From an uncultured Oscillospiraceae bacterium (GTDB taxonomy: Bacteria > Bacillota > Clostridia > Oscillospirales > Oscillospiraceae): 64,000 bases of DNA. Below, one piece after another: positions 30,207 through 45,692 of the stretch. Position numbers and translations under genes: made by a program. The notes under the pieces were generated by a model. That model ran no database searches. It was not told the origin of the DNA and saw only the letters and a program-made list of their open reading frames with translations. The DNA lies in assembly GCA_964430345.1 (NCBI GenBank), contig CAYSFK010000001.1:7-64006 (forward strand), read 5' to 3'. Each line of letters starts with the position of its first letter. Position 1 is the stretch's first letter.

Positions 30207-30283
30207 TGGCACGCCTGAGGGGATTCGAACCTCCGACCTACCGCTTAGGAGGCGGTCGCTCTATCCTGCTGAGCTACAGGCGC
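30207..30283 (-). tRNA. tRNA-Arg (anticodon CCT)
   Basis: 77-nt cloverleaf GCGCCTGTAGCTCAGCAGGATAGAGCGACCGCCTCCTAAGCGGTAGGTCGGAGGTTCGAATCCCCTCAGGCGTGCCA. Anticodon loop is CTCCTAA, the T-loop is GGTTCGAATCC, and the CCA is encoded. Confidence 0.9.
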
Positions 30284-33369: not shown

Positions 33370-33714
33370 CTACATTGCTTCTATCTCTTTGATGTTGAAC
33401 TCATTTCCTGTGACAAGGAAGGTGTTGACACTGTGGCATTTGGGGCATTCCTTGGCGAACTCCACCGTGGGGTAGGTGTTCCGGCAGTCCTGACAGAAGG
33501 TGACGGCTTTCAGCTCCTCTATCTTCAGCTCCGTATCCTTCAAAAGCGCTGAGTCCTTGCGGGCGTAAAGCCAGAAATCCGTCAGGTAGTCCGGCACAAT
33601 GCCGCTGACCTCGCCTACCTCAAGGGTGATGGAGCCCACCGCCGTAAGCTCCTGCTCCTTTGCCAGCTTCTCTATAGTGTCAATAACGTATACTATCGTT
33701 CCCAGCTCGTGCAT
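33370..33714 (-). CDS. HypA/HybF-like metallochaperone-fold protein (copy 1)
   Basis: 114 aa with N-terminal MHELG, Zn-ribbon CQDC-x13-CPKC and C-terminal NEFNIKEIE. The start overlaps the upstream stop (TAATG). Confidence 0.75.
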   Translation of the reverse strand: MHELGTIVYVIDTIEKLAKEQELTAVGSITLEVGEVSGIVPDYLTDFWLYARKDSALLKDTELKIEELKAVTFCQDCRNTYPTVEFAKECPKCHSVNTFLVTGNEFNIKEIEAM

Positions 33715-36428
33715 TATTTGCCCTTGCTGCGCAGTATCTTTATCTCGCGCTTCATCGTGTAGGGGAGTATAGCCTTCAGTTTATCCTCGGCCTTGTACAT
33801 CACCGAAGCCTCCGGCAGATCGCGGCTGAGATGGATGGCGTCAAACTCGCAGCGGGTGGTGCACAGACCGCAGCCGATGCACTGGTTCTCGTCCACCTCT
33901 GTGGCGCCGCAGCCCAGGCAGCGGGAAGCCTCCTTTTTGACCTGTTCCTCGGTAAAGGGGAGACGGTCGTTGGCAAAGCTCTTGGCCTTGCTCTCGTCGT
34001 GGCCGACAGTCTGGCGCTTGGCATTGTCGAAGCCCAGAGGTATCACCGCGCTGCTCTTGTCAAGCTCGGTGAACTGACGGAGATTCCGCGCCAGAGTGAG
34101 GCTCTGCCCGTCATGGACAAAGCGGTGCAGGGACTCGGCGCCCTCGCGTCCGGCGGCAATGGCGTCTATGGCGAACTTGGGGCCTGAGGCGAAGTCGCCA
34201 CCGGCAAAGATATCGCTTCGCGCGGTCTGAGCGGTGACCGGGTCAACGATAACCGTACCGTTGGGATTGAAGGTCATCCCTGCGTCGGCAAGGCCGCCCA
34301 GCTCCACCTTCTGGCCCACGGCGCCGATAACGCTGTCAAGCTCGATAGTCTCGAATTTGCCTGTGCCTACGGGCTTGCGGCGGCCCTTGGCGTCGGCCTC
34401 GCCCAGCTCCATAAGCTCCACCTTTATTGCGGCCACCTTGCCGTCCTTGCCGATTATCTCCACGGGAGCGCAGAGGAACTTGAACTGAACGCCTTCGGCC
34501 ATGGCCTCTGCCAGCTCGTCCTTATCGGCGGGCATCTCGGCCTCGCTGCGGCGGTAAATTATATAGGTCTCCTTGGCACCCAGTCTCACAGCGGTGCGGC
34601 ACACGTCCATGGCCACATTGCCGCCGCCTATAACGGCGCACTTCTCGCCCAGCTCCGGCTTCTCGCCCAGATTCACACTGCGCAGGAAGTCAACACCGCC
34701 GTAAACGCCGGAGAGCTCCTCACCCGGAACGCCGATGGGCGCGGACTTCTGGGCGCCGATGGCCATATAGAAGCCCTTGTAGCCCTGAGCGCGCAGCTCG
34801 TCCAGAGTGACGTCCTTGCCCACCTCAACACCGCACTTGAATTCTACGCCCATTTGCTTGAGCACGTCTATCTCAGCATTGATGACGTCCCGCTCAAGAC
34901 GGAAGCTGGGGATGCCCATGGTGAGCATACCGCCGGGGGCGGGGTTACGGTCGAACACGGTGACCTTATAGAGCATATGCGCCAGGAAGTAGGCACAGCT
35001 CATGCCGGCGGGGCCGGCACCTATGACGGCTATCTTCTCCTCGTAGGGAGTGAGCGACATCTTTCTGGGCCTGGGGTCGGGAACATAGCGGCACTCGCTC
35101 TTGAGCTCCTGCTCAGCCACAAAGCGCTTTATCTCGTCTATAGCCACGGCCTTATCCACGCTGGCTCTGGTGCAGGCCTCCTCACAGCGGCGGTTGCAGA
35201 TGCTGCCGCAGACGGCGGGGAAGGGGTTATCCTGCTTTATGAGCTTAAGAGCATCAAGATAGCGGCCGTTGGCGGCCATGTTGATATAGCCCTGAACGGC
35301 AATATGGGCGGGGCAGGCCGTCTTGCAGGGAGAGGTGCCCGTATCGTAGCAGTTTATCATGTTGCTGTTGCGGTAATCCTCGTCCCACTTCTCCGGGCCC
35401 CACTTGGTGTCGTCCGGCAGCTCGTGCTTGGGATACTTGACGGGGCCGTTTACCGTACACAGCTTCTGGCCCAGCTTGGCGGCACCGGCGGGGCAGACCT
35501 CAACGCACTTGCCGCAGGCCACACACTTCTCCTTATCCACATGAGCCCTGTAGGCGCTGCGGGAGAGGTTGGGCGTATTGAACAGCTGGGAGGTACGCAG
35601 AGCGTAGCACACGCCGGGGGCGCAGTTGCAGATGGCGAAAATCTTATCCTCGCCGTCGATATTGGTTATCTGATGGACATAGCCCTCCTCCTCGGCGCGG
35701 CGAAGAATGTCCATGACCTCCTCATATGTACAGACGTGGCCGTCCTTGCCGGTCTCGACGCAGTACCTGGCACAGTCGCCCACAGCGATGCACCAAAGGT
35801 CCTCCACGTCGCCGGAGCCTTCGCCGCGTACGGATTGAGAGCGGCGGCAGGAGCAGGGGCCGACGCAGAAGTAATCATACTTCTTCAGCCAATGGGACAG
35901 ATGCTCAACGCTTACCGACTTGGACCCGGTGGGGATGGCATTCTCCACGGGGATAACGTGCATACCAATACCGGCGCCTCCGGGAGGCACCATGGGAGTG
36001 ACCACCTCCAGAGGAAGCCTGGCCATGGCGTTAAAGAAGTCACAGACCTCGGGGTGGGCCTTGACGAAATCGCCCCGCATATTCAAAAACTCGGCGGCAC
36101 CGGGCACGAACAGCGGCAGCAGATACTGCTTATGGTGGTCCTCGTTCTCCCAGTTGTATTCCAGCATACCCATGCAGCTCAGCTCAAAAAGCATTTTCTC
36201 CAGCTTTTCAAGATCGCTCCAGCCGGAGAGCTTGGATATCTCCTCCAGACTTACAGGCTTGCGCTGCGGCATACTGAGCAAAAGACTCACCATCTCGTCG
36301 TCCAGTATATTAGCCAGACCCCAGTATTCGGGGCAGTCCTCGTTGAGCTTTTGCAGCCCCAGCTTGTATGGGATGCGGTCAGTCATTTTTTTGCCCAACT
36401 TAAACAGATTTTCTTTGTTTGTTACCAT
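33714..36428 (-). CDS. Multi-domain FeS flavoprotein (copy 1): N-terminal Cys-rich module, 4Fe-4S motif, GltD-like NAD(P)H/FAD oxidoreductase, C-terminal ferredoxin
   Basis: About 904 aa from the ATG at 36428 (GGAGAGG upstream). Motifs: VGPCSCRRS...ICNCAPGVC; CVACGKCVEVCP; PCKTACPAHIAVQGYI...NPFPAVCGSICNRRCEEACTR; IAVIGAGPAGMSCAY; AVIGGGNVAMD; CLGCG...CIGCGLCTTRC. Confidence 0.75.
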   Translation of the reverse strand: MVTNKENLFKLGKKMTDRIPYKLGLQKLNEDCPEYWGLANILDDEMVSLLLSMPQRKPVSLEEISKLSGWSDLEKLEKMLFELSCMGMLEYNWENEDHHKQYLLPLFVPGAAEFLNMRGDFVKAHPEVCDFFNAMARLPLEVVTPMVPPGGAGIGMHVIPVENAIPTGSKSVSVEHLSHWLKKYDYFCVGPCSCRRSQSVRGEGSGDVEDLWCIAVGDCARYCVETGKDGHVCTYEEVMDILRRAEEEGYVHQITNIDGEDKIFAICNCAPGVCYALRTSQLFNTPNLSRSAYRAHVDKEKCVACGKCVEVCPAGAAKLGQKLCTVNGPVKYPKHELPDDTKWGPEKWDEDYRNSNMINCYDTGTSPCKTACPAHIAVQGYINMAANGRYLDALKLIKQDNPFPAVCGSICNRRCEEACTRASVDKAVAIDEIKRFVAEQELKSECRYVPDPRPRKMSLTPYEEKIAVIGAGPAGMSCAYFLAHMLYKVTVFDRNPAPGGMLTMGIPSFRLERDVINAEIDVLKQMGVEFKCGVEVGKDVTLDELRAQGYKGFYMAIGAQKSAPIGVPGEELSGVYGGVDFLRSVNLGEKPELGEKCAVIGGGNVAMDVCRTAVRLGAKETYIIYRRSEAEMPADKDELAEAMAEGVQFKFLCAPVEIIGKDGKVAAIKVELMELGEADAKGRRKPVGTGKFETIELDSVIGAVGQKVELGGLADAGMTFNPNGTVIVDPVTAQTARSDIFAGGDFASGPKFAIDAIAAGREGAESLHRFVHDGQSLTLARNLRQFTELDKSSAVIPLGFDNAKRQTVGHDESKAKSFANDRLPFTEEQVKKEASRCLGCGATEVDENQCIGCGLCTTRCEFDAIHLSRDLPEASVMYKAEDKLKAILPYTMKREIKILRSKGK

Positions 36429-36480
36429 TAATGCCTCTCCCTTCAAAATGTGTATAAAACCGAGTAGACCATGCGCTGTA

Positions 36481-36645: not shown

Positions 36646-37455
36646 ATGAGGATCAGACAGAGACAAGGGAACAGGGCGGGCTTTACTCTGGCGGAGCTGT
36701 TGGTAGTTGTGGCCATTATTGCAGTGCTTGTGGCCATCAGCATCCCGGTTTTCGGCAGCGCGCTGGAGCGGTCAAAGGCGGCAGCCTGTATGGCCAACCG
36801 ACGCTCGCTTTTATCAGAGCTTACGGTGGAGTATATGACGGAAGGGGAGGGCTTTGACCACCCAAATATTGAGCAGTATAAATGCCCGTCGGGAGGCGTG
36901 ATCACTTATTCGCGTAGGGACGGGAAATTTACTGTGCTTTGCTCGGTGCACACCGGCTGGAATAAGGATACCCTGCCCAACGCTTTCAAGGAGGTCTTTA
37001 ACGACTTCAGCGGTAAGAACATCGATTCCAACGCGATCCAGGGTGATGGGGACAACAAGGAGCTCTGGCTCAAGCAGGCAATGGATAAGCTTGAAAAGGC
37101 CGGGATAGACCTTTCGGCAGTGGGCGCGGAGACCTGGTCACTGAGAACGGATAACGAAAACAACCTGTATTTCAACTGGTCTACCGTGGATATCACAGGG
37201 CTCAATGACGGCGATATTGTACCGGTGATACGGTACAGGGATGATGGGAAGTACGCGGGACAGTACAGCGTCTGGGAGTATAAGGTGACTACCATCACCA
37301 GCAACGGCGCGACCTACAAGGTGCTGGGCAACCCGCTGAATAAGGAAGTAAGCGAAAAGCTCAGCATTGAGCAGAAGAAGGATATCAATGTGATCATTGA
37401 CACCTATAATAAATACGCGGAAGGCAAGGAAAACGTCCCGCTGCTGAAAAAATAA
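36646..37455 (+). CDS. Prepilin-type N-terminal cleavage/methylation domain protein (type IV pilin-like)
   Basis: 269 aa with the class III signal QGNRAG/FTLAELLVVVAIIAVLVAISIP (Glu at +5). RBS GAGAGGG. Confidence 0.7.
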   Translation: MRIRQRQGNRAGFTLAELLVVVAIIAVLVAISIPVFGSALERSKAAACMANRRSLLSELTVEYMTEGEGFDHPNIEQYKCPSGGVITYSRRDGKFTVLCSVHTGWNKDTLPNAFKEVFNDFSGKNIDSNAIQGDGDNKELWLKQAMDKLEKAGIDLSAVGAETWSLRTDNENNLYFNWSTVDITGLNDGDIVPVIRYRDDGKYAGQYSVWEYKVTTITSNGATYKVLGNPLNKEVSEKLSIEQKKDINVIIDTYNKYAEGKENVPLLKK

Positions 37456-37516: not shown

Positions 37517-38293
37517 TCATCCGGCGCACTGGCGTCCGGTGTTATCAATAAAAGTGGTGCCGGTAAGCAGTATCTGGGAGATGGGGATAATCTTATATCC
37601 GTCGGCCAGCAGTGATTCGATAATTCCCGGCAGAGCCTCCGGGGTGTTCTCCGCGGCGTTGTGGAACAGCACTATGCTGCCCGGCTCTACCTTCTCCAGC
37701 ACCCGGCGCTTTATGTCCAGAGCGGACAGCCCCTTCCAGTCCAGACTGTCCACGTCCCACTGGACGGCGGTCATGCCCATGCCGCTGACAGTGCTGATAA
37801 CATGGTCGTCATACTCGCCGTAGGGGCAGCGGAACAGCGTGGGCGTGACCCCGGTGACGGCAGCTATTTTTTCGTTGCAGGCGGTCACGTCCGCGATTAT
37901 CTCATCCTCGCTGAGCTTGGAGAAATGGGCGTGGTTCAGGGAGTGGTTCATTATCTCGCTGCCGCTGTCGGCCAGAGCCCTGACTGATTCCGGGTATTTA
38001 TCCACCCAGTCGCCCACCACGAAGAAGGTGGCATTTATCTTGTATTTGCCCAGTATGTCTATCAGTGCCTGAGTGTCCTCGTTGCCCCAGGCCGCGTCAA
38101 AGCTCAGGGAAACCACCTTGTCATCCCGCTCCACACAGTAGACTGGCAACTGCCGATCGGAGGCGGAGACGCCCACGATGGCGGGGCTGTTCACTGTCCA
38201 GAATATCAGCACCAGCGCCGCCGTCAGCGCGATGGCGGATACGGCGCCCTTATACCTGCCCATGGTCTTTTTGAAATCAGTCAAGCTCATCAC
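37517..38293 (-). CDS. Polysaccharide deacetylase (NodB homology domain)
   Basis: Signal anchor, then LSFDAAWGNEDT...ATFFVVGDW...NHSLNHAHF...LFHN. The exact start is uncertain (GTG/ATG/TTG cluster). Confidence 0.8.
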   Translation of the reverse strand: MMSLTDFKKTMGRYKGAVSAIALTAALVLIFWTVNSPAIVGVSASDRQLPVYCVERDDKVVSLSFDAAWGNEDTQALIDILGKYKINATFFVVGDWVDKYPESVRALADSGSEIMNHSLNHAHFSKLSEDEIIADVTACNEKIAAVTGVTPTLFRCPYGEYDDHVISTVSGMGMTAVQWDVDSLDWKGLSALDIKRRVLEKVEPGSIVLFHNAAENTPEALPGIIESLLADGYKIIPISQILLTGTTFIDNTGRQCAG

Positions 38294-38333: not shown

Positions 38334-38366
38334 ACGAAAACACAGGCGGCAGAGATGCCGCCTGTG
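38334..38366 (-). terminator. Rho-independent terminator ending the four-gene redox operon
   Basis: On the minus strand: CACAGGCGGCA-TCTC-TGCCGCCTGTG followed by TTTTCGTTAT. Confidence 0.6.
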
Positions 38367-38376
38367 CCTCATAATT

Positions 38377-38727
38377 CTACTGTTCCTCCGGGACGTGGAT
38401 CTCCTTAATGTTGAAGTCCTTGCCGGAAAGAACATCCTTGTCGAAGCTGCCGCAGTTGGGGCAGTAGCCCTTGTGCTCAACCACGTTGAATATCTCGTCG
38501 CAGTCGTTGCACTCGGCAAGGCCCGGGATTATCTCAATGATAAGCTTTGTGTCCTTCAGCTCCGTATCCATGACCACCGCCGGGTACACATCCTCTACAT
38601 ACTCCGGTATGACCAGAGACAGCTCGCCTATCTCGCAGACTATCTCGCTTATCCTCTGGACATTGTTCTCTCTGGCGTAGTCCAGAACGGTCTTGCACAT
38701 ACTTCTGACGATGCCAATTTCATGCAT
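38377..38727 (-). CDS. HypA/HybF-like metallochaperone-fold protein (copy 2)
   Basis: 116 aa with MHEIG, Zn-ribbon CNDC-x12-CPNC and C-terminal KDFNIKEIHV. It starts 6 nt after the stop of the upstream gene. Confidence 0.75.
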   Translation of the reverse strand: MHEIGIVRSMCKTVLDYARENNVQRISEIVCEIGELSLVIPEYVEDVYPAVVMDTELKDTKLIIEIIPGLAECNDCDEIFNVVEHKGYCPNCGSFDKDVLSGKDFNIKEIHVPEEQ

Positions 38728-38733
38728 AAGCGT

Positions 38734-41418
38734 TTATTTTCCGAACTTTATCTTCTTGGCGGCCAGCTTGCCCACGGCGGCGGGCGCGTTGCCGAAGATG
38801 TTCAGCAGAGCCTTGTAATAGCTGGGGCCCTTGTACTCGCTGACCTTCTCCAGATGTATGGCGTCGAACTTGCACTTAGTGGTGCATATGCCACAGCCGA
38901 TGCACATATACTCGTCCACCTGAACCGCGCCGCAGCCCAGGCAGCGCTCGGCCTCCTTCTTCATCTGCTCCTCGGTGAATACACCGCGAAGATCCTCAAA
39001 GGTCTTTTTGGCCTCGCTTGCCGAACCGGAGGCGGCCTTCTGCCGGGGAGCTGTGTCAAAGCAGTCAAGGGCGATGGCCACGTTCTCCGTATCCAGCGCC
39101 TTGTAGTCCCGCCTGTCGCGGCCAAAGTCCAGAGTCTGCCCGTCGTGCACAAAGCGGTGGATGGAGACAGCGCCCTCCTTGCCGGCCGCAATGGCGTCAA
39201 TGGCAAACTTGGGTCCCGTCACCGCGTCGCCGCCGGCGAACACGTCCTTTTCGCCGGTCTGCCAGGTGAAGGCGTCGGCTATGACCGTGCCCTTGTCGCT
39301 GAGCTTTACGCCGCCCAGGTCCAGGCTGCCCATGTCAACCTTCTGACCGATGGCGGATATGACCGATGTGAATTCCACCGTGTCAAATTCGCCGGTGCCT
39401 ACTGGCTTGCGGCGGCCCTTGGCGTCCGCCTCGCCCAGCTCCATGCGCTCCAGCTTAAGAGACTGCACCTTGCCCTCGCCCAGTATCTCCACGGGCGCGG
39501 CCAGATACATGAACTTGACGCCCTCTTCCTCGGCCTCGAGTATCTCATCGTCCGCAGCGGGCATTTCCTCTCTGGCGCGGCGGTACACGATGGTGACCTC
39601 CTTGGCCCCCAGTCTCACGGCTGTGCGGGCCACGTCTATGGCCACGTTGCCGCCGCCGATGACCGCCACCTTATCGCCCAGCTCTACCTGCTGGCCCAGA
39701 TTGACCTTGCGCAGGAACTCTATGCCGGTGAACACGCCGGGCAGCTCATCGCCCTTGCAGCCAACGGTGCCGCCCTTGGAGGCGCCGATGCCAAGATAGA
39801 AAGCCTTGTAGCCGTCGGCGCGCAGCTGGGCCAGAGTGACGTCTTTGCCCACCTCTACGCCGGTCCTGAACTCTACGCCCAGACCCTTGAGTATGTCTAT
39901 CTCGGCGTTTATGACCTCACGGCCAAGACGGAAGCTGGGTATGCCCATGGTGAGCATACCGCCCAGAAGCTGTTCCTTCTCAAACACGGTCACGGGATAG
40001 CCCTTAACCGCCAGATAGTAGGCACAGCTAAGCCCCGCGGGGCCGGCGCCGATGACCGCTATCTTTTCCTCGTAGGGCTTGCCCAACTGGTTGAGCATCT
40101 TGGGTACAAAGCGGGTCTCCGCATCAAGGTCCTTCTCGGCGATGAACTTCTTGATATCGTCGATGGCGATGGGGGAGTCTATGCGGCCGCGGGTGCAGGC
40201 GTCCTCGCAGGCCTTGTTGCATATGCGCCCGCAGACGGCGGGGAAGGGGTTCTCTTTCTTGATGAGCTCCAGAGCCTCGGCGTATCTGCCCTCGGAGGCC
40301 AGCTTAATGTAGCCCTGTACGGGGATATGGGCGGGGCAGGCGCTCTTGCAGGGGGAGGTGCCGGTCTCCACCACGTTCTTGCGGGACACCCGGTAATCGG
40401 GGTTATAGGAGTCGGCGCTCCACATACTGCTTTTGGCCTTTTCGTTCTCGTCGGTCAGCTCAACCGGCTTCACTTCGCAGAGCTTCTGGCCCAGGCGAAG
40501 GGCGTTGGTCTGGCAGTTTTCCACGCACTGTCCGCAGGCAACGCACTTTTCCTTTTCTACAACGGCCTTGAAGTTGGAGCGCATACCGTCGGGCTTCTTA
40601 AAGTACTCGGCGATACGCAGGGAGAAGCAGGAGCAGCCGCAGCAGTTGCAGATGGCAGTGGCCTCCTCGAAGCCGGGGGCCTGATTTATCTCATGGACAA
40701 GGCCGTTGTCCTCAGCCCGCTTGAGTATCTCATAGGCCTCCTCCTTGGAGACCAGATGGTGCTCGCCGTACTTGGAGTAGTTGATGGCATTGTCGTTGAG
40801 ATACATACACATATCGTCTTCCAGATGCCCGCAGCCTTCGCCCATTATCCGGCGGGAACGGCGGCAGGAGCAGGGGCCGACGGAGATGGCCTTGGCATTC
40901 TCGATAAGTGTGCTTATCTCGTCATAGGAGGCTGTGCGGGAGTTGTTCTCGATGGCGCTCATGACGGGCATGACCCGCATAAAGGACATACCGCGGCCCA
41001 TCATGGGTGCCAGCACGGATATGCGCTTTCTGGTGTACTCCTCAAAGCACTGGGCCAGAATGGGGTACTTCTCGCACTGGGCCTTGTTGCTCAGCACACC
41101 TTCCATGACGCCGGGAACCCAGATGGGGTAGTAGTATCCGGTGCCCTTCTCAGTCTTGCGGACACGGGCAACGCCGCAGTCTATGAGCTTCTGGATCTGT
41201 CCGGCTATGTAGTCCGGGGCCTTTTTGCAGCGGGCTGCCAGCTCCTCCACCGTGCGGGGTGTCTCCAGCTTCATGTGCATCATCACATCGCACATTTCGT
41301 CGTCAATGATGGGCTCCAGTATTTTGTACTCGCTGTCGTTGTAGGTCACGCCGGTATAGGTCATGCCCTCCAGACTGATCTTGCTCGCAAGCGCGAGAAT
41401 ATTTGGTCTGTTTGCCAT
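38734..41418 (-). CDS. Multi-domain FeS flavoprotein (copy 2), paralog of 33714..36428
   Basis: 894 aa with VGPCSCRRS...ICNCCGCSC; CVACGQCVENC; PCKSACPAHIPVQGYI...NPFPAVCGRICNKACEDACTR; IAVIGAGPAGLSCAY; AVIGGGNVAID; CLGCG...CIGCGICTTKC. RBS GAGGTGAAATT. Confidence 0.75.
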   Translation of the reverse strand: MANRPNILALASKISLEGMTYTGVTYNDSEYKILEPIIDDEMCDVMMHMKLETPRTVEELAARCKKAPDYIAGQIQKLIDCGVARVRKTEKGTGYYYPIWVPGVMEGVLSNKAQCEKYPILAQCFEEYTRKRISVLAPMMGRGMSFMRVMPVMSAIENNSRTASYDEISTLIENAKAISVGPCSCRRSRRIMGEGCGHLEDDMCMYLNDNAINYSKYGEHHLVSKEEAYEILKRAEDNGLVHEINQAPGFEEATAICNCCGCSCFSLRIAEYFKKPDGMRSNFKAVVEKEKCVACGQCVENCQTNALRLGQKLCEVKPVELTDENEKAKSSMWSADSYNPDYRVSRKNVVETGTSPCKSACPAHIPVQGYIKLASEGRYAEALELIKKENPFPAVCGRICNKACEDACTRGRIDSPIAIDDIKKFIAEKDLDAETRFVPKMLNQLGKPYEEKIAVIGAGPAGLSCAYYLAVKGYPVTVFEKEQLLGGMLTMGIPSFRLGREVINAEIDILKGLGVEFRTGVEVGKDVTLAQLRADGYKAFYLGIGASKGGTVGCKGDELPGVFTGIEFLRKVNLGQQVELGDKVAVIGGGNVAIDVARTAVRLGAKEVTIVYRRAREEMPAADDEILEAEEEGVKFMYLAAPVEILGEGKVQSLKLERMELGEADAKGRRKPVGTGEFDTVEFTSVISAIGQKVDMGSLDLGGVKLSDKGTVIADAFTWQTGEKDVFAGGDAVTGPKFAIDAIAAGKEGAVSIHRFVHDGQTLDFGRDRRDYKALDTENVAIALDCFDTAPRQKAASGSASEAKKTFEDLRGVFTEEQMKKEAERCLGCGAVQVDEYMCIGCGICTTKCKFDAIHLEKVSEYKGPSYYKALLNIFGNAPAAVGKLAAKKIKFGK

Positions 41419-41471
41419 AATTTCACCTCATTGTTATTTATCGGGGAGCCGGGAGGCATCCCCGACCCGCC

Positions 41472-42689
41472 CTATTTTACAGGGTATACGCAAAGCTCGA
41501 TGTCGCTGAGGGGATAGGAACAGCAGGGGTGTACCCAGCCGAATTTCTTATCCGCCAGCCTGCGCCCGTCCGCGTCCGGCGGGCAATAGTACTCGCCCAT
41601 AACAAGCTTCGAGTGGCACCAGCCGCACTCGCCGCTGCGGCAGTGGGAGGGGGCCGCTATACCGGCGCGCTCCATTGCCCAGAGCAGCGTTTCGCCGGCC
41701 TCGCAGGGTACGGTCTGCTTCTTGCCGCGGATGTCCACGGTAAGCTTGAATTCGCCGCTTTTCTTGTCCGCGGGGTAGTCGGCGTTGTTGACGGCGCCCA
41801 TGTAGTCGCCGGACATCTCCGCCCGGTAACGGCGCTTGGGAAGGCCAAGCTTCTGGCACTCCGGGATGCAGAAGTCGTACATGGCCTTGGGGCCGCACAT
41901 GAACACCGAGAAGTCGCCTTCGGGAGCGTACTTTTTGATAAGCTCCCCGTTGATGAAGCCGTGCTCATAGCCCGCCTTCTCCTCGTGGGACAGCACGTGT
42001 ACCACCTTCACACGGCCGTTGGACTCCGCTGCCAGCGCTTCTATCTCATCCTTGAGCAGGATGCCGTCAGAGCTGCGGCTGCCGTAGAGGATGGTCATGT
42101 CGAAGTCCTCTATGCCGGAGACTATGGCGGCGGCCATAGAGTAGAAGGGAGTGATGCCGCTGCCGCCGGCGACGGCAACGATGTGCTTCGCGTCACGCAG
42201 CGCCTGATAGTAAAAGTCCCCCAGAGGGCCGCTGAGCTCTACGCTGTCGCCTTCCTTCCAGGTGTCCAGAATGAACCGGGAGGCATAGGCCGGGTCTGTG
42301 AGCTTGACGGTGAGTATGTAGCTGCTGCCCTCGCCCAAAGCGTCCTTGGGGTTTGAGCGGATGGTGTAGGGCTTATTCACCAGAGCACCGCTGATGTTCA
42401 GCGCAACGCTCACATACTGGCTGGCGCGGAAATAAGCCAGCTTCTCCGTGCCTTTGGACTTGTCCGCTGTCAGGGTAAAGCTCTTGGCTCCGCCGTGGTC
42501 CTCCACCTTAGCTATCTTAGTATATTGTACCCCAGGATGCAGTGTCTTGGCAAGGACATTTTCATTATATACAGAAACAGGCAAATCCGTAGGTGCCGCC
42601 TCTATCATCTTGGTACGAAGCTTGGTTTCGCCCAGGAACGCGCCTACGCCCAGACCCTTGAGGGCGCTCTTATCGTAGTTGTATTTCAT
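41472..42689 (-). CDS. FNR-family flavin reductase with C-terminal plant-type 2Fe-2S ferredoxin domain (Hcr / phthalate-dioxygenase-reductase-like)
   Basis: 405 aa with the FAD-binding motif RASQYVS-type (RxYS/T), the NAD-binding GGSGITP, and C-terminal HCRSGECGWCHSKL...HPCCSYP. Confidence 0.75.
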   Translation of the reverse strand: MKYNYDKSALKGLGVGAFLGETKLRTKMIEAAPTDLPVSVYNENVLAKTLHPGVQYTKIAKVEDHGGAKSFTLTADKSKGTEKLAYFRASQYVSVALNISGALVNKPYTIRSNPKDALGEGSSYILTVKLTDPAYASRFILDTWKEGDSVELSGPLGDFYYQALRDAKHIVAVAGGSGITPFYSMAAAIVSGIEDFDMTILYGSRSSDGILLKDEIEALAAESNGRVKVVHVLSHEEKAGYEHGFINGELIKKYAPEGDFSVFMCGPKAMYDFCIPECQKLGLPKRRYRAEMSGDYMGAVNNADYPADKKSGEFKLTVDIRGKKQTVPCEAGETLLWAMERAGIAAPSHCRSGECGWCHSKLVMGEYYCPPDADGRRLADKKFGWVHPCCSYPLSDIELCVYPVK

Positions 42690-44225
42690 TTATTTGCCCT
42701 CCTTCATGTCAAGAAGCATATGCCGGGCCTGCTCCGCGCCGCTGAGATAGGCCTGACTGTAGCCGTCCATCTGGGTGCCGTGGCCGCCGCAGAAGCGCAG
42801 ACCCTTGACGGTGTAGTCCAGGTGTATGGACTGGACTCTGGGGAACATACCGTCCCAGGTGCGGGGCTCGTAGCCATATACATCGCCGTAGGGCGTACCC
42901 AGATATCTGGCCCAGGTAACGGGGGAGGCCACTACCAGCTCCTCGATATGGCTGCGTATATCAAGGCCGGAGACCCGCTCGTAGTCCATAACCGCGTCCA
43001 TGGCTATTTTATCCTTGAGCTTAAAGTACTCCTCCTCGCTGACGCCCTCAAATATGCTGGTTGTATAGAACTTGCTGAACTGGAGATAGCAGCTGCCGGG
43101 ACGGGAGGCGTCGGGTATGACGTTGTTGAGCACGGTGACGCAGTAATCGTTGTGGGTGTCGATTGAGGCTGCGTTGTCATACTGCTTGAGCGTGTCGCCG
43201 GTGGTGCGCACAAAGGTGTCGTAACCCTTTAGGCCTATTTCCTCGGCGGAGGCGTCCAGACCCAGATAGACCGTGAAGGCGGACTGGGCCAGCTTTCTGG
43301 CGTTCATGGCCTTAAGATCACGCTCCGGTATCTCGCTGTGGTCCACCATCCTGTCAAAGACCACCGTGGGCATCAGGTTTGAGATGACCCGCTCACAGGG
43401 CAGGTACTCGCCGCTGCAGAGCTCTACGCCGCGCACGGCGTTGTTCTTTACGTCGATGCGCTTTACCTCGCAGTTGTACCAGATGTCGCCGCCCAGCTCC
43501 CGGATACGCTGGTCATAGGCAAGGCTTATCTCATGGCTGCGGTTTTTTGCTATCCAGGGCTTCTTGGTGAGATATACATAGACCATGAAGCAGTAGACCG
43601 CGAAGCTTATCTTCGTGGAATCCACGCTTACGTAGTCCCAATAGGACTCGTATATCTCGCGGGCCTTGTCGGGTACGCCTATTTTCCTGAGCATCTCGTC
43701 ACAGGTGACTGGGACCACCTTCATCAAATCGTGGTACTTCAGCAGCATCTCCACCTTGGCAAGGGGGCCGGGCTCATTATTGTGCTCTGCCAGCCAGGCC
43801 ACGCCGTCCTTCAGCATCCGGCCAAGCTCCATCACCGTGGTCATGGACTCTCTGGAGCCGGGGACCTCCTTCTCCATGGCGTCGATAAACTCCTGAACAC
43901 CGTCGGGCATGAAAACATTGAAGCCGGTCTCCGGGTCGGTGTTAATGGACGAAAAGGCCTCGTTCACCGGCACCCAGTCCACGTCCAGCCCGTATCCGTC
44001 CAGCAGCGCCCGCACCGCGGCGGGGTCCTCCGCCGTGCCCATCTGGCACAGCTCATGCAGCGTGGCCTCAAACTCGAAATCGCCCCGCTTAAAGCTGGTG
44101 GCGCAGCCGCCGGGGAGATTGTGCTTTTCCAGCACCAGTACCTTCTTGCCGGCCTTGCACAGATAGGCGGCCGCCGAAAGGCCGCCGTTGCCGGCTCCTA
44201 CAACAATTACGTCGTACTTGGGCAT
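42690..44225 (-). CDS. Phytoene-desaturase-family (CrtI-like) FAD-dependent oxidoreductase
   Basis: 511 aa with N-terminal [38 protein letters not shown] and a C-terminal GGHGTQMDG-type FAD motif. Its stop directly abuts the next gene's ATG (TAAATG). Confidence 0.75.
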
Positions 44226-44269
44226 ATGCTTTTTCCTCCGTTCTTAGCTTAAGTTTCCATAGTACATTC

Positions 44270-44284
44270 TGTGGCTATACCACA
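44270..44284. promoter_or_regulatory. Inverted repeat TGTGG-N5-CCACA (candidate GntR-type operator)
   Basis: It lies directly next to the -10 hexamer of the operon promoter candidate and covers the predicted transcription start. Confidence 0.35.
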
Positions 44285-44313
44285 ATAATACAACTTTGCA
44301 AAATTTTTAGCAA
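44285..44313 (-). promoter_or_regulatory. Candidate sigma-A promoter of the CrtI-like operon
   Basis: On the minus strand: TTGCTA, 17 nt, TATTAT. Confidence 0.45.
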
Positions 44314-44332
44314 TATTCTTTCGACCAATCGG

Positions 44333-44360
44333 GCACAAATCGTAGGCTGCTGATTTGTGC
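44333..44360. promoter_or_regulatory. Perfect 9-bp inverted repeat GCACAAATC-N10-GATTTGTGC in the divergent control region
   Basis: Read directly from the sequence. It lies between the two divergent promoter candidates. Confidence 0.3.
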
Positions 44361-44407
44361 AGATATGTCAAAAAAATCGGGCTGTGGCCGGGAACGGAAA
44401 GCCATAC

Positions 44408-44436
44408 TTGATTTTGGATGCCTGCAGGGCTATAAT
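44408..44436 (+). promoter_or_regulatory. Sigma-A promoter for the GntR regulator
   Basis: TTGATT, 17 nt, TATAAT. It lies inside the 5' part of the track ORF, so the GTG at 44357 is unlikely to be the start. Confidence 0.55.
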
Positions 44437-44470
44437 AACGGTGAAGTATCATAGAAACGGAATCGATGCA

Positions 44471-45190
44471 ATGCGTGAAAACTGCGGTCAGGGGCTGAAG
44501 GATAAATTTATCAACATCATGCAGGCGAGGATACTGTCCGGGGAGCTGAAGCCCGGAGACCCCTTGCCCCCTGAGCGGGAGCTGGCGGCCCAGCTGGGCA
44601 TCAGCCGGGGCTCCGTGAATCAGGGCATACTGGATATGGAGCGCATGGGCTTTCTGAGGATAGTTCCCAGAAAGGGCAGCTTTGTGGCGGATTATATTAA
44701 AAATGCCACGCCGGTGACGCTGAGCGCCATAATGAGCTATGATTCCCAACTGGTGGACGGGAATCTTTTTAAAGACCTTATGGAGCTGCGTATACTCGTC
44801 GAACGGGAATGCGTCCGGCTGGCCTGCGGAAAGGTGAGCAATACCGCAAGGGAGAAGCTGGCCCGACTCAACGAGCAGATACACGATTTCAAGGGCGAGG
44901 CTCCGGTGGAAGCGCTGTACGACTACCACCGATGCATCACCAAGATATCCGGCAACGCCGCCTATTCCATGGTGTTCCAGAGCTTTGAGAAGATGCTGAA
45001 GAACCTGATGCAGGTCCACTACAGCAATGAAAGCGAGCTTAAAAAGAGCCTGCCCCTGTACGACGCTTTGACGGCTGCTCTGAGCCGGGGCGATGGGGCG
45101 GAGGCGGACGAGCTTATCCTTAAGCTGCTGGGATCTGCCTCTGTGTACCTGAACAAACGGCTCAGCGGAAAGACGGCGGCCGATGAGTAA
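44471..45190 (+). CDS. GntR-family transcriptional regulator, FadR subfamily (FCD ligand domain)
   Basis: wHTH LPPERELAAQLGISRGSVNQGILDMERMGFLRIVPRKGSFV, then a helical FCD-like C-terminal domain. Confidence 0.8.
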   Translation: MRENCGQGLKDKFINIMQARILSGELKPGDPLPPERELAAQLGISRGSVNQGILDMERMGFLRIVPRKGSFVADYIKNATPVTLSAIMSYDSQLVDGNLFKDLMELRILVERECVRLACGKVSNTAREKLARLNEQIHDFKGEAPVEALYDYHRCITKISGNAAYSMVFQSFEKMLKNLMQVHYSNESELKKSLPLYDALTAALSRGDGAEADELILKLLGSASVYLNKRLSGKTAADE

Positions 45191-45692
45191 GGGCGGATTG
45201 GAGATAGAGCGAAAGTACCTTATCCGTTACCCTGACCTGAAAGTGCTGGAGGAGAGGGCTCAGGCGTCGGATATAGTGCAGACCTATCTGACCGGCGGGC
45301 CTGTAAAGGGCAGTGAAAGAGTCAGAAAACGCCGCTACGGCGACAGAGTGGAATATACCCACACCCTAAAGCAGCATATAACCGATGTGACCCGTACGGA
45401 GGACGAGCGTGAGCTGTCAAGGGCCGAGTACGAAAGCCTGCTTAAAAGGGCCGACCCGGAGCGAATGCCCATACAGAAGAAAAGATACTGTCTCAGCTAT
45501 GAGGGACGGCTGTTTGAGATAGATGTCTACCCCTTTTGGGATGACAGGGCGGTGCTGGAGACGGAGCTTGAGGACGAGGCCCAACAGTTCAGCTTCCCGC
45601 CGGAGCTGCGGATAATCCGGGAGCTCAGCCACGACAGGCGCTACACCAATGCAGCCATGGCCCGGAGCATACCCAGAGAGGATATAGACTGA
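45183..45692 (+). CDS. CYTH-domain protein (triphosphate tunnel metalloenzyme)
   Basis: 169 aa with the N-terminal EIERKYL motif and alternating acidic/basic beta-strand pattern. It overlaps the gntR stop by 8 nt. Confidence 0.7.
   Translation: MSKGGLEIERKYLIRYPDLKVLEERAQASDIVQTYLTGGPVKGSERVRKRRYGDRVEYTHTLKQHITDVTRTEDERELSRAEYESLLKRADPERMPIQKKRYCLSYEGRLFEIDVYPFWDDRAVLETELEDEAQQFSFPPELRIIRELSHDRRYTNAAMARSIPREDID

Follow-up and report, generated by a model that had tools for sequence, protein, structure and literature searches.

Four redox genes lying head to tail in the chromosome of an uncultured bacterium of the family Oscillospiraceae raise the question of whether they encode a single electron-transfer chain or distinct reductases brought together under one promoter. 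The locus belongs to a stretch of 64,000 nucleotides (nt) of contig CAYSFK010000001.1 (GCA_964430345.1), from a metagenome-assembled genome (MAG), which is hereafter called the window and to which all coordinates refer. In the order of transcription, the genes encode (i) a flavoenzyme resembling CrtI, (ii) an FNR-type reductase with a [2Fe-2S] domain (FNR/2Fe-2S), (iii) an iron-sulphur (FeS) flavoprotein, and (iv) a HypA-like protein, while a gene for a GntR regulator is transcribed divergently. In an initial annotation, they were regarded as one self-contained chain, where two NAD(P)H entry modules feed the CrtI-like enzyme. Comparison across genomes leads to another view: the four-gene unit consists of two separately conserved modules joined in a lineage-specific manner and not of one conserved chain, namely module A, i.e., the CrtI-like flavoenzyme and the FNR/2Fe-2S reductase, and module B, i.e., the FeS flavoprotein and the HypA-like protein. 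The reading favoured here, with a confidence a little above even, is that the locus joins two independently conserved two-gene reductase modules that would now be read from a GntR-controlled promoter.

Organisation of the Operon

The four open reading frames (ORFs), the divergent regulator gene and the domain calls are as first annotated, each being supported by Pfam, and the elements of the operon are as follows (lengths in amino acids, aa).

42690..44225, minus strand: CrtI-like flavoenzyme, putative catalytic subunit of module A, 511 aa (Pfam NAD_binding_8 and Amino_oxidase)
41472..42689, minus strand: FNR/2Fe-2S reductase of module A, 405 aa (Pfam FAD_binding_6, NAD_binding_1 and C-terminal Fer2)
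41419..41471, minus strand: junction of modules A and B, 53 nt, with a GC-rich hairpin without U-tract and a ribosome-binding site
38734..41418, minus strand: FeS flavoprotein of module B, IsrA-like, 894 aa (Pfam Fer4, Fer4_20, Pyr_redox_2 and C-terminal Fer4)
38377..38727, minus strand: HypA-like protein, putative accessory of module B, 116 aa (Pfam HypA over the full length, E = 7.5e-30)
38337..38370, minus strand: intrinsic terminator closing the operon (15-bp stem with 8 GC pairs, then a T-run)
44285..44313, minus strand: promoter-like site of the CrtI-like operon (TTGCTA-17-TATTAT)
44270..44284, no strand: putative GntR operator, the palindrome TGTGGCTATACCACA (TGTGG-N5-CCACA)
44408..44436, plus strand: promoter-like site for the GntR gene and downstream genes (TTGATT-17-TATAAT)
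44357..45190, plus strand: ORF of the GntR regulator, with ATG 44471 as probable start (44471..45190, 239 aa; Pfam GntR, FCD and FadR_C)

The TAA of the CrtI-like gene directly abuts the ATG of the FNR gene, the latter is separated from the FeS flavoprotein gene by the gap of 53 nt, with a GAGGTG ribosome-binding site inside, and the HypA-like gene follows after 6 nt; read directly, these junctions agree with those originally described, and the strong terminator once placed at 38334..38366 is essentially the one found at 38370-38337 on the minus strand. Upon folding, the 53-nt spacer yields a hairpin (z = -1.5) that is not taken for a terminator because it has no U-tract. The spacer lacks a terminator, a search directly in front of the FeS flavoprotein gene of the window gave no sigma-70-like promoter, and the promoter segment present there in relatives is missing (see below); on these grounds, co-transcription of the four genes is very probable here, and the proposal of a single operon is upheld for this genome. 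An Rfam scan of the window gave a tRNA gene as sole match and no riboswitch or leader in the operon.

Separate Conservation of Two Modules

For the comparison, 80 loci, one per species, were collected from reference genomes through alignment of CrtI-like homologues, from Oscillospiraceae, Mobilibacterium, Lachnospiraceae, Coriobacteriia, Sphaerochaetaceae, Alloprevotella, and Hallerella, and the proteins of the operon were searched therein by tblastn; homologues of the FeS flavoprotein were also collected independently of the CrtI-like gene. The FNR/2Fe-2S gene comes directly after the CrtI-like gene in all 70 loci with room for it, with gaps of at most 13 nt and across five phyla. The FeS flavoprotein gene, on the other hand, is present in 17 of the 80 CrtI-like loci (8 of the 34 with room on both sides), the CrtI-FNR pair occurring without it in the remaining 63, and a HypA gene stands beside it in 16 of these 17 loci as well as in all stand-alone pairs examined. 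As such, synteny of the four-gene unit, on which the idea of one conserved chain depended, fails in relatives, where the FeS flavoprotein and HypA genes occur by themselves, as they do a second time within the window.

Module A, a CrtI-Like Flavoenzyme with a Dedicated Reductase

The CrtI-like protein bears at its N terminus an FAD Rossmann motif (GAGNGG) and shares its overall fold and best NCBIfam matches with the group of CrtI, CrtD, CRTISO, and retinol saturase (TIGR02734, TIGR02730, 4dgk, 4rep). A profile search of the PDB returned only CrtI and CrtD (E about 1e-13); the AlphaFold2 model (pLDDT 79) was matched best by Foldseek to 4rep (E = 3e-24, TM 0.72/0.75) and 4dgk, the fold matches to both ranging over TM values of about 0.57-0.75. 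The differences from this group are nonetheless marked: identity to the solved structures is 14-15%, the score against the family model crtI_fam (TIGR02734) is 65.4 bits for a cut-off of 238.1, and those against the CrtI, CrtD, CrtO, and CRTISO equivalogs do not exceed 79 bits for cut-offs of at least 550, the best of them being the carotenoid isomerase (TIGR02730, 79 vs 587 bits). Module A further differs in its obligatory FNR/2Fe-2S partner and its context, where no carotenoid pathway gene (crtB, crtE, crtY etc.) was found, either in the window or among the recurrent neighbours in the 80 loci. These scores and contexts support the placement of the protein in the CrtI/CRTISO superfamily but in no functionally assigned clade, as the reading in the initial annotation required. 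A role in a carotenoid or retinoid pathway was considered and rejected for want of context genes and on account of scores far below the cut-offs. CRTISO and retinol saturase need reduced flavin; should the same need apply to the CrtI-like enzyme, the dedicated reductase of module A would be explained.

The FNR/2Fe-2S protein finds its best NCBIfam matches in Hcr and PaaE. With Hcr, PaaE, and GbcB, it shares FAD_binding_6, NAD_binding_1, and a C-terminal Fer2 domain and presumably the role of an NAD(P)H-driven donor to a separate catalytic protein, but it scores far below every equivalog cut-off (121 vs 383 bits for Hcr) and it is paired, in strict anaerobes, with a CrtI-like flavoprotein instead of with a Rieske/di-iron oxygenase or the hybrid-cluster protein. 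That the CrtI-like and FNR proteins act together is indicated by natural fusions of the Rosetta-stone type, since six proteins of 882-918 aa (P0270, P0325, P0361, P0389, P0391, and P0392), from Syntrophales, Myxococcales, and Pseudomonadota MAGs, combine a CrtI-like domain with FAD_binding_6, NAD_binding_1, and Fer2, in both orders. Contexts of the fusion proteins were taken from loci L092 and L093/L094: the Syntrophales fusion has as neighbours genes for an acyl-CoA ligase, an acyl-CoA dehydrogenase, an enoyl-CoA hydratase, a CoA-transferase, and TRAP/MFS transporters, and the Pseudomonadota fusion adjoins menaquinone biosynthesis genes and PlsY. The module is otherwise composed of one CrtI-like gene, second copies coming with their own FNR gene, and CrtI-like paralogues from Spirochaetia and other taxa are likewise paired with an FNR/Fer2 gene.

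CrtI-like homologues number more than 2,550, and a profile search of 1.84 billion representatives gave 571 CrtI-like clusters (50% identity) at E <= 1e-30. In distant phyla, the flanks of module A are unrelated housekeeping genes, with a type IV secretion coupling protein nearby in Mobilibacterium, and neither the census of neighbours in the 80 loci nor a Pfam analysis of flanks in five phyla disclosed a recurrent transporter or pathway gene. On this basis, the CrtI-like/FNR pair behaves like an autonomous and horizontally mobile cassette. A search of plasmids returned just relatives of the CrtI-like protein with 24-26% identity. In Mobilibacterium timonense (L001), two tandem CrtI-like/FNR pairs are found beside genes for the type IV secretion coupling protein and nitrogenase-like oxidoreductases. 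Source annotations of the window proteins and of the paralogue representatives are all generic names, and a search of the literature for a CrtI-like enzyme in gut or rumen biohydrogenation brought nothing relevant. Judging from the sequence comparisons, module A would thus be an undescribed and widespread variant of the CrtI family with an obligatory FNR/2Fe-2S partner.

Module B, a Putative Member of the IsrA Family

The 894-aa FeS flavoprotein is made up of an N-terminal region with a winged helix and a domain with six cysteines (Cys6), followed by Fer4 (286-308), a GltD/NfnB-like FAD/NAD(P)H core with two [4Fe-4S] clusters (Fer4_20, 354-431; Pyr_redox_2, 452-746) and a C-terminal Fer4 (832-865). 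Exactly six N-terminal Cys residues (183, 185, 204, 257, 259, and 264) are invariant in 16 sequences, including the paralogue of the window; the model of this domain has a pLDDT of only 61 and gave weak matches to the winged-helix part only. The neighbouring protein clearly exceeds the cut-off of the Pfam HypA family (103.7 vs 28.9 bits) and stays below that of TIGR00100 (77.1 vs 88.1).

A second, stand-alone pair of the same kind lies in the window, with no CrtI-like gene nearby, the start of its HypA-like gene overlapping the stop of the FeS flavoprotein gene by 1 nt.

33714..36431, minus strand: IsrA-like FeS flavoprotein of the second, stand-alone pair, sharing 49% identity with the first over the full length
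33370..33714, minus strand: second HypA-like gene, 114 aa (Pfam HypA, 5e-29)

Both HypA-like proteins possess the N-terminal MHE nickel-binding motif and two CxxC zinc motifs (MHEIG..., CNDC, and CPNC in the first; MHELG..., CQDC, and CPKC in the second). An 8-kb stretch of the window therefore holds two paralogous putative Ni/FeS reductase pairs (the second at 33370-36431). Between them are found a gene for a protein with a prepilin-type N-terminal methylation motif (36646-37455, plus strand) and a polysaccharide deacetylase gene (37517-38293, minus strand), the latter syntenic in relatives with a varying orientation relative to the second IsrA-like pair. Subdoligranulum variabile (L099, OY725877.1, 189239-201767) carries an IsrA-like gene with 58% identity to the second copy of the window, together with a HypA gene and a divergent GntR gene.

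Three assignments were considered and rejected for module B, namely (i) HypA as a hydrogenase maturation factor, given that HypA is always found with the FeS flavoprotein and that neither hydrogenase nor hyp genes are near, the window being free of hydrogenase, urease, further hyp genes (hypBCDEF) and nickel transporters; (ii) electron bifurcation of the Nfn type, given that the FNR gene travels with the CrtI-like gene; and (iii) purine metabolism of the YgfK/AegA type, given a score of 367 bits for a cut-off of 835 and a differing architecture. Respective to NfnAB and GltD, the core (Fer4_20 and Pyr_redox_2, with FAD and two [4Fe-4S]) is homologous to NfnB and GltD, but the window protein adds the N-terminal Cys6 domain and two ferredoxin-type domains, and no partner of the NfnA/PyrK type is present, the only FNR-type gene being of the Hcr/PaaE type with a plant-type Fer2 and linked to the CrtI-like gene.

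The features of module B recall instead IsrA, an isoprene-induced oxidoreductase of Acetobacterium wieringae (ISORED-2, strain Y; Kronen 2023, PMC10134865; Jin 2022, PMC9765523). IsrA (VUZ27132.1 / WP_228882120.1), of the clade-9 oxidoreductases of Kronen 2023, has 901 aa, of which the first ~270 are without annotated domain, followed by ferredoxin-type motifs (289-300 and 848-877), Fer4_20 and Pyr_redox_2; it contains six clustered Cys with CxC at 180-182 and 254-256, proposed by the authors as a possibly nickel-bearing active site (PMC10134865). Among 988 IsrA homologues, 73% neighbour HypA and 56% HypB, in genomes without [NiFe]-hydrogenase, and IsrA was proposed as the terminal reductase with HypA as its maturation factor (PMC10134865). 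The organism carrying it reduces conjugated dienes only (PMC9765523), and some Acetobacterium IsrA homologues adjoin an oleate hydratase gene (PMC10134865). The likeness of module B thereto lies in (i) a length of ~900 aa and the same domain order, (ii) six conserved Cys with two CxC near residues 180 and 255, and (iii) a HypA gene directly downstream with no [NiFe]-hydrogenase genes near, in a strict anaerobe of the Bacillota. As for the differences, the window lacks HypB, a second HypA in the operon and an IsrA-like 4Fe-4S ferredoxin gene, it exhibits two paralogous pairs in 8 kb, one of them fused behind a GntR-controlled CrtI-like/FNR cassette, and the host is a gut-type Oscillospiraceae MAG and not an acetogen. 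From these shared features, module B would be a new member of the recently proposed, still putative IsrA family, and the best reading of the 894-aa FeS flavoprotein, by analogy, is that of a putative terminal reductase of conjugated dienes for which HypA would serve in maturation.

Against this background, the view of a single four-component chain, where the FNR/2Fe-2S protein and the FeS flavoprotein would both feed NAD(P)H electrons to the CrtI-like protein as terminal enzyme, with HypA as an accessory, appears quite unlikely. It accords with the co-transcription of the four genes in the window and with the repeated adjacency of the two modules at short gaps; moreover, with the catalytic role of IsrA unproven, the family could in principle donate electrons. 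Such a chain is nevertheless hard to reconcile with the 63 loci where the CrtI-FNR pair stands without an FeS flavoprotein, with the existence of self-sufficient fusion proteins, and with FeS flavoprotein/HypA pairs standing alone in close relatives and occurring a second time in the window. In addition, an NAD(P)H/FAD site is present in the FeS flavoprotein itself, and the conserved Cys6 domain of this protein, with a dedicated metallochaperone, resembles an active site, not a wire; the part of mere electron-entry module once given to it has to yield to its fit with a family of proposed terminal reductases.

Joining of the Modules

The junction of the two modules can be followed on a shared backbone, consisting of the genes for Obg, L27, L21, a DUF3298 protein and a protein of ~170 aa, then the FeS flavoprotein and HypA genes. 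The GntR-CrtI-FNR cassette is absent from this backbone in L085/086 (77% identity), L087 (72%), and L090/091 (80%) and present at exactly the position of the window in L088 and L089. At the DNA level, window positions 49146-45499 and 41431-38387 are collinear with L085, with ~3.8 kb (~41432-45190) having no counterpart. Upstream of the FeS flavoprotein gene, L085, L090, L087, and the cassette-bearing L088 display a TTGCA-N17/18-TGnTATAGT element (alignment A3), a segment that is missing in the window, where only 53 nt are left. Since this native promoter segment is missing and no sigma-70-like site is found directly upstream, module B appears to have been captured by the promoter of module A, in what the alignments indicate to be a genuine, lineage-specific operon fusion. 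In this lineage, the cassette occupies the intergenic region between the divergent genes, upstream of a resident module B whose own promoter is lost, so that all four genes would now be read from the GntR-controlled promoter. In the same alignment, GTTAAGCAnGTGTCAnATTGCA is conserved upstream of and overlapping the -35 of the native promoter of the FeS flavoprotein gene (L085 7880-8000, L090, L087, and L088 9100-9197); it could be the site for a regulator of the stand-alone module B and is missing from the window.

Adjacency of the modules is not restricted to this backbone but occurs in at least five separate arrangements. In the tree of CrtI-like proteins, the order B-A corresponds to one clade of 14 rumen-type loci, and the order A-B is scattered over four or more lineages that differ in their flanks (the window/L081, L088/089, L022, L027, and L043); in L017, the modules are divergent with one operator copy before each, and in L082-084 they are about 8 kb apart. 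In the B-A clade, 11 loci have a gap of 16-27 nt from the HypA to the CrtI-like gene; in L043, about 18 nt separate the FNR from the FeS flavoprotein gene. Several rumen loci present a co-directional string of seven genes, i.e., GntR, CrtI', FNR', FeS flavoprotein, HypA, CrtI, and FNR. The association of modules A and B is thus likely not random, and since they are separable yet repeatedly adjacent with short gaps, it is likely to reflect a facultative cooperation in one process.

The alternative is that the two modules are unrelated and incidental neighbours, a mobile GntR-CrtI-FNR cassette having landed in, or left, a permissive intergenic region by a core pair, an explanation that we regard as doubtful but as having some claim. 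The cassette is patchy on one and the same backbone and is met in unrelated housekeeping contexts, with a type IV secretion coupling protein beside the L001 copy, L088 retains the module B promoter, and stand-alone module B has no operator, all of which speaks for mere neighbours. The five or more independent A-B arrangements with differing flanks speak otherwise, as do the gaps of 16-27 nt in 11 loci and the paired operators in L017; by a rough estimate, a single cassette placed at random in a genome of ~2.5 Mb would fall within 8 kb of either of two B copies with a chance near 1%.

In the loci with modules about 8 kb apart (L082-L084) and in L090-L091, two genes of the HGD-D family (~398 and 512-521 aa), i.e., 2-hydroxyacyl-CoA dehydratase or benzoyl-CoA reductase-like, together with a 52-53-aa ORF, lie near module A or B, often in the company of a further GntR gene. 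An activator ATPase gene was not seen with them, and the window has no HGD-D-family genes.

Probable Regulation by a FadR-Type GntR Protein

The regulator matches the Pfam families GntR (2.1e-14), FCD (2.5e-15), and FadR_C (1.6e-8). Its ORF is open from GTG 44357, the GntR proteins of relatives are 241 aa long, and the real start is probably the ATG at 44471. A similar GntR gene is found just upstream of the CrtI-like gene in 21 of the 69 loci with room. The palindrome TGTGGCTATACCACA occurs once in the window, for 0.08 occurrences expected, and this operator abuts, directly downstream, the predicted -10 of the promoter of the CrtI-like operon. Its core, GTGG-N5-CCAC, was recovered in 19 of 23 divergent GntR/CrtI intergenic regions, and in about 36 loci the operator precedes the start codon of the CrtI-like gene by 48-74 nt; paralogous pairs have upstream copies too. 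The regulators of the CrtI-like/FNR paralogues from Spirochaetia and other taxa are of TetR or GntR type. The regulator displays the features of the FadR subfamily, namely a winged-helix GntR domain, FCD/FadR_C, and a palindromic operator with a GT...AC core. The position of a conserved operator at the promoter backs the control by GntR proposed from the outset and supports repression of module A by the FadR-type protein at TGTGGCTATACCACA. On the GntR side, many intergenic regions of cassettes contain a CTTGATTT-N17-TAnAAT element, which is met again in relatives lacking the cassette.

In L017 (5151-5275), one divergent intergenic region contains two GTGG-N5-CCAC copies, the first preceding an IsrA-like gene (48% identical) by 26 nt and the second the CrtI-like gene by 55 nt, which suggests that modules A and B may be under one regulon in that MAG.

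The stop codon of the GntR gene overlaps the start of a gene for a 169-aa protein (45183-45692, plus strand; ATG overlapping the GntR stop codon), which has no Pfam match. Whether or not they carry the cassette, relatives encode this protein at the corresponding site of the backbone, with 53-58% identity, and in the window its gene probably shares a transcript with the GntR gene. The remainder of the window is ordinary core chromosome (AlaRS, ComEC, HolA, RF3, PcrA, Obg, L21/L27 etc.), the tRNA gene being at 30210-30283 on the minus strand.

Proposed Function and Comparison with Known Systems

The combination of the two modules is not a described pathway, which confirms the first impression, and the closest described system in kind to module A is, by analogy, the limonene dehydrogenase CtmAB of Castellaniella defragrans with CtmEF. 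CtmAB is a flavoenzyme of the phytoene-dehydrogenase family acting on an unactivated terpene without oxygen, and its genes are accompanied by those for CtmE, a [2Fe-2S] ferredoxin, and CtmF, an NADH:ferredoxin oxidoreductase (PMC4109377); the delta-24 steroid desaturase is the second characterised relative of CtmAB (PMC11061730). The likeness to these systems resides in (i) a flavoenzyme of COG1233 whose gene is linked to those for a [2Fe-2S] protein and an NAD(P)H reductase, (ii) a reaction of their own that is independent of O2 and takes place beside an unactivated isoprenoid C=C, and (iii) a conserved His at the position of the flavinylated one, in a motif that agrees only in part. In CtmAB and the delta-24 steroid desaturase, the flavinylated His belongs to the motif G-F-[L/R]-x-[N/S]-[T/L]-H-A; at the equivalent position, residues 50-58 of the CrtI-like protein read F-E-F-E-A-T-L-H57-E, with a conserved F-E-x-S/T-L-H motif, a family consensus F-E-x-S-L-H-E and a His57 conserved in 95 of 122 representatives. 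Positions F, S/N, L, and H agree between the two motifs while G, L/R, and A differ, and the flavin may be covalently bound at His57. The differences are that CtmAB and the desaturase are heterodimers of paralogous subunits and the window encodes one subunit, that CtmE and CtmF are separate proteins and the window encodes a single FNR-type protein with a fused plant-type Fer2, and that their hosts are denitrifiers carrying out oxidative reactions, whereas the host of the window is a fermentative anaerobe, for which reason reduction or isomerisation is deemed more plausible here.

From the standpoint of these relatives, module A could be oxidative, performing an allylic hydroxylation or desaturation with electrons passing via [2Fe-2S] and FAD to NAD(P)+, or to module B, which would amount to a net double-bond migration. 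The genetic coupling of CtmAB to CtmE and CtmF, ctmE being needed for growth on limonene (PMC4109377), is in line with this possibility, as are the conserved His at the position of the flavinylated one and the reaction of the delta-24 steroid desaturase, which makes a conjugated diene (PMC11061730), i.e., the type of substrate proposed for IsrA. By our own estimate, however, the oxidation of an allylic C-H, with an E0' of some 0 mV or above, by NAD+ (-320 mV) would be strongly endergonic in a fermentative anaerobe; the match of the His motif is partial, the flanking residues differing, the CrtI-like protein is a single subunit and not a heterodimer, and module A occurs mostly without module B. 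Oxidation by module A is consequently held to be very improbable, and a reductive or isomerising function is preferred.

In the mechanism proposed here, electrons in module A would pass from NAD(P)H to the FAD of the FNR-type protein, then to its [2Fe-2S] and on to the flavin of the CrtI/CRTISO-like subunit, which would saturate or isomerise a non-activated C=C of a lipophilic substrate. In module B, they would pass from NAD(P)H to FAD, four [4Fe-4S] clusters and the N-terminal Cys6 site, putatively loaded with nickel by the HypA-like protein, for the reduction of a conjugated diene. The FadR-type regulator, bound to TGTGGCTATACCACA at the -10, would repress the operon until released by the substrate or its CoA ester.

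The process shared by the modules is most plausibly hydrogenation or isomerisation of non-activated double bonds in lipophilic substrates, by analogy with both families, which are precedented or proposed for such chemistry. No transporter recurs in the 80 loci, and lipophilic substrates need no uptake system, which argues for a substrate of this kind and makes a hydrophilic organic acid unlikely as the substrate. A lipophilic or acyl substrate is further indicated by the Syntrophales fusion amid acyl-CoA genes, the other fusion beside menaquinone genes, the FadR_C domain of the regulator, and the precedent of CtmAB/CtmEF (PMC4109377). The oleate hydratase gene beside some Acetobacterium IsrA homologues agrees with hydrogenation or isomerisation as well. 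The best guess is an unactivated alkene, i.e., a terpenoid, a polyene or an unsaturated fatty acyl. A more specific version, which must be considered unlikely though not negligibly so, is that modules A and B constitute a regulated system by which Oscillospiraceae of the gut and rumen hydrogenate non-activated double bonds in lipids or terpenoids of the diet. The CrtI-like enzyme, activated by its reductase, would shift or saturate bonds, e.g., from a methylene-interrupted to a conjugated diene, and a new nickel/iron-sulphur flavoenzyme would then reduce the conjugated diene.

Several points weigh against the reading of two cooperating reductase modules under one promoter. Regarding the joining, the cassette-bearing L088 retains an internal module B promoter, the cassette may have been either gained or lost on this backbone, the CTTGATTT-N17-TAnAAT element being found both with cassettes and in relatives without them, and most A pairs and most B pairs occur apart, so that cooperation is at best facultative. 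Regarding module A, no member is characterised, the comparison with CtmA/B was made at the family level from published descriptions, and the characterised CrtI-family relatives with ferredoxin partners, i.e., CtmAB and the delta-24 steroid desaturase, are oxidative and not reductive. Regarding module B, its likeness to IsrA was judged from published features, no HypB/CobW-type match was present among the Pfam-scanned ORFs of the window whereas more than half of the IsrA homologues have HypB, and the function of IsrA itself is backed by proteomics and RT-PCR only, two 2026 preprints adding transcriptomics.

Significance

Reducing or rearranging an unactivated C=C without O2 is chemically hard, and few enzyme types are known for it. 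Module A is a very widespread pair with no assigned function in the sources searched, present in gut, rumen, and sediment anaerobes of several phyla, and, if the reading is true, it would stand for a new class within the CrtI family, of enzymes that are self-sufficient and depend on NAD(P)H. Module B would extend the idea of a possible new class of nickel enzymes, put forward for IsrA, to abundant gut Oscillospiraceae with two copies per genome. The link between both offers a testable hypothesis for the microbial hydrogenation of dietary terpenoids, carotenoids, or unsaturated fatty acids. This process shapes the lipid exposure of the host and the fat composition of ruminants, and, to our knowledge, most of the reductases responsible are still unidentified; the genes behind the biohydrogenation of polyunsaturated fatty acids or terpenes have long been sought, and modules A and B would be candidates for them if the proposal holds. 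Experiments are feasible thanks to the conserved operator and to cultured carriers, namely Mobilibacterium timonense for module A and Subdoligranulum variabile for module B. As such, the recurrent fusion of modules A and B provides a concrete lead toward anaerobic alkene biohydrogenation in gut and rumen bacteria.

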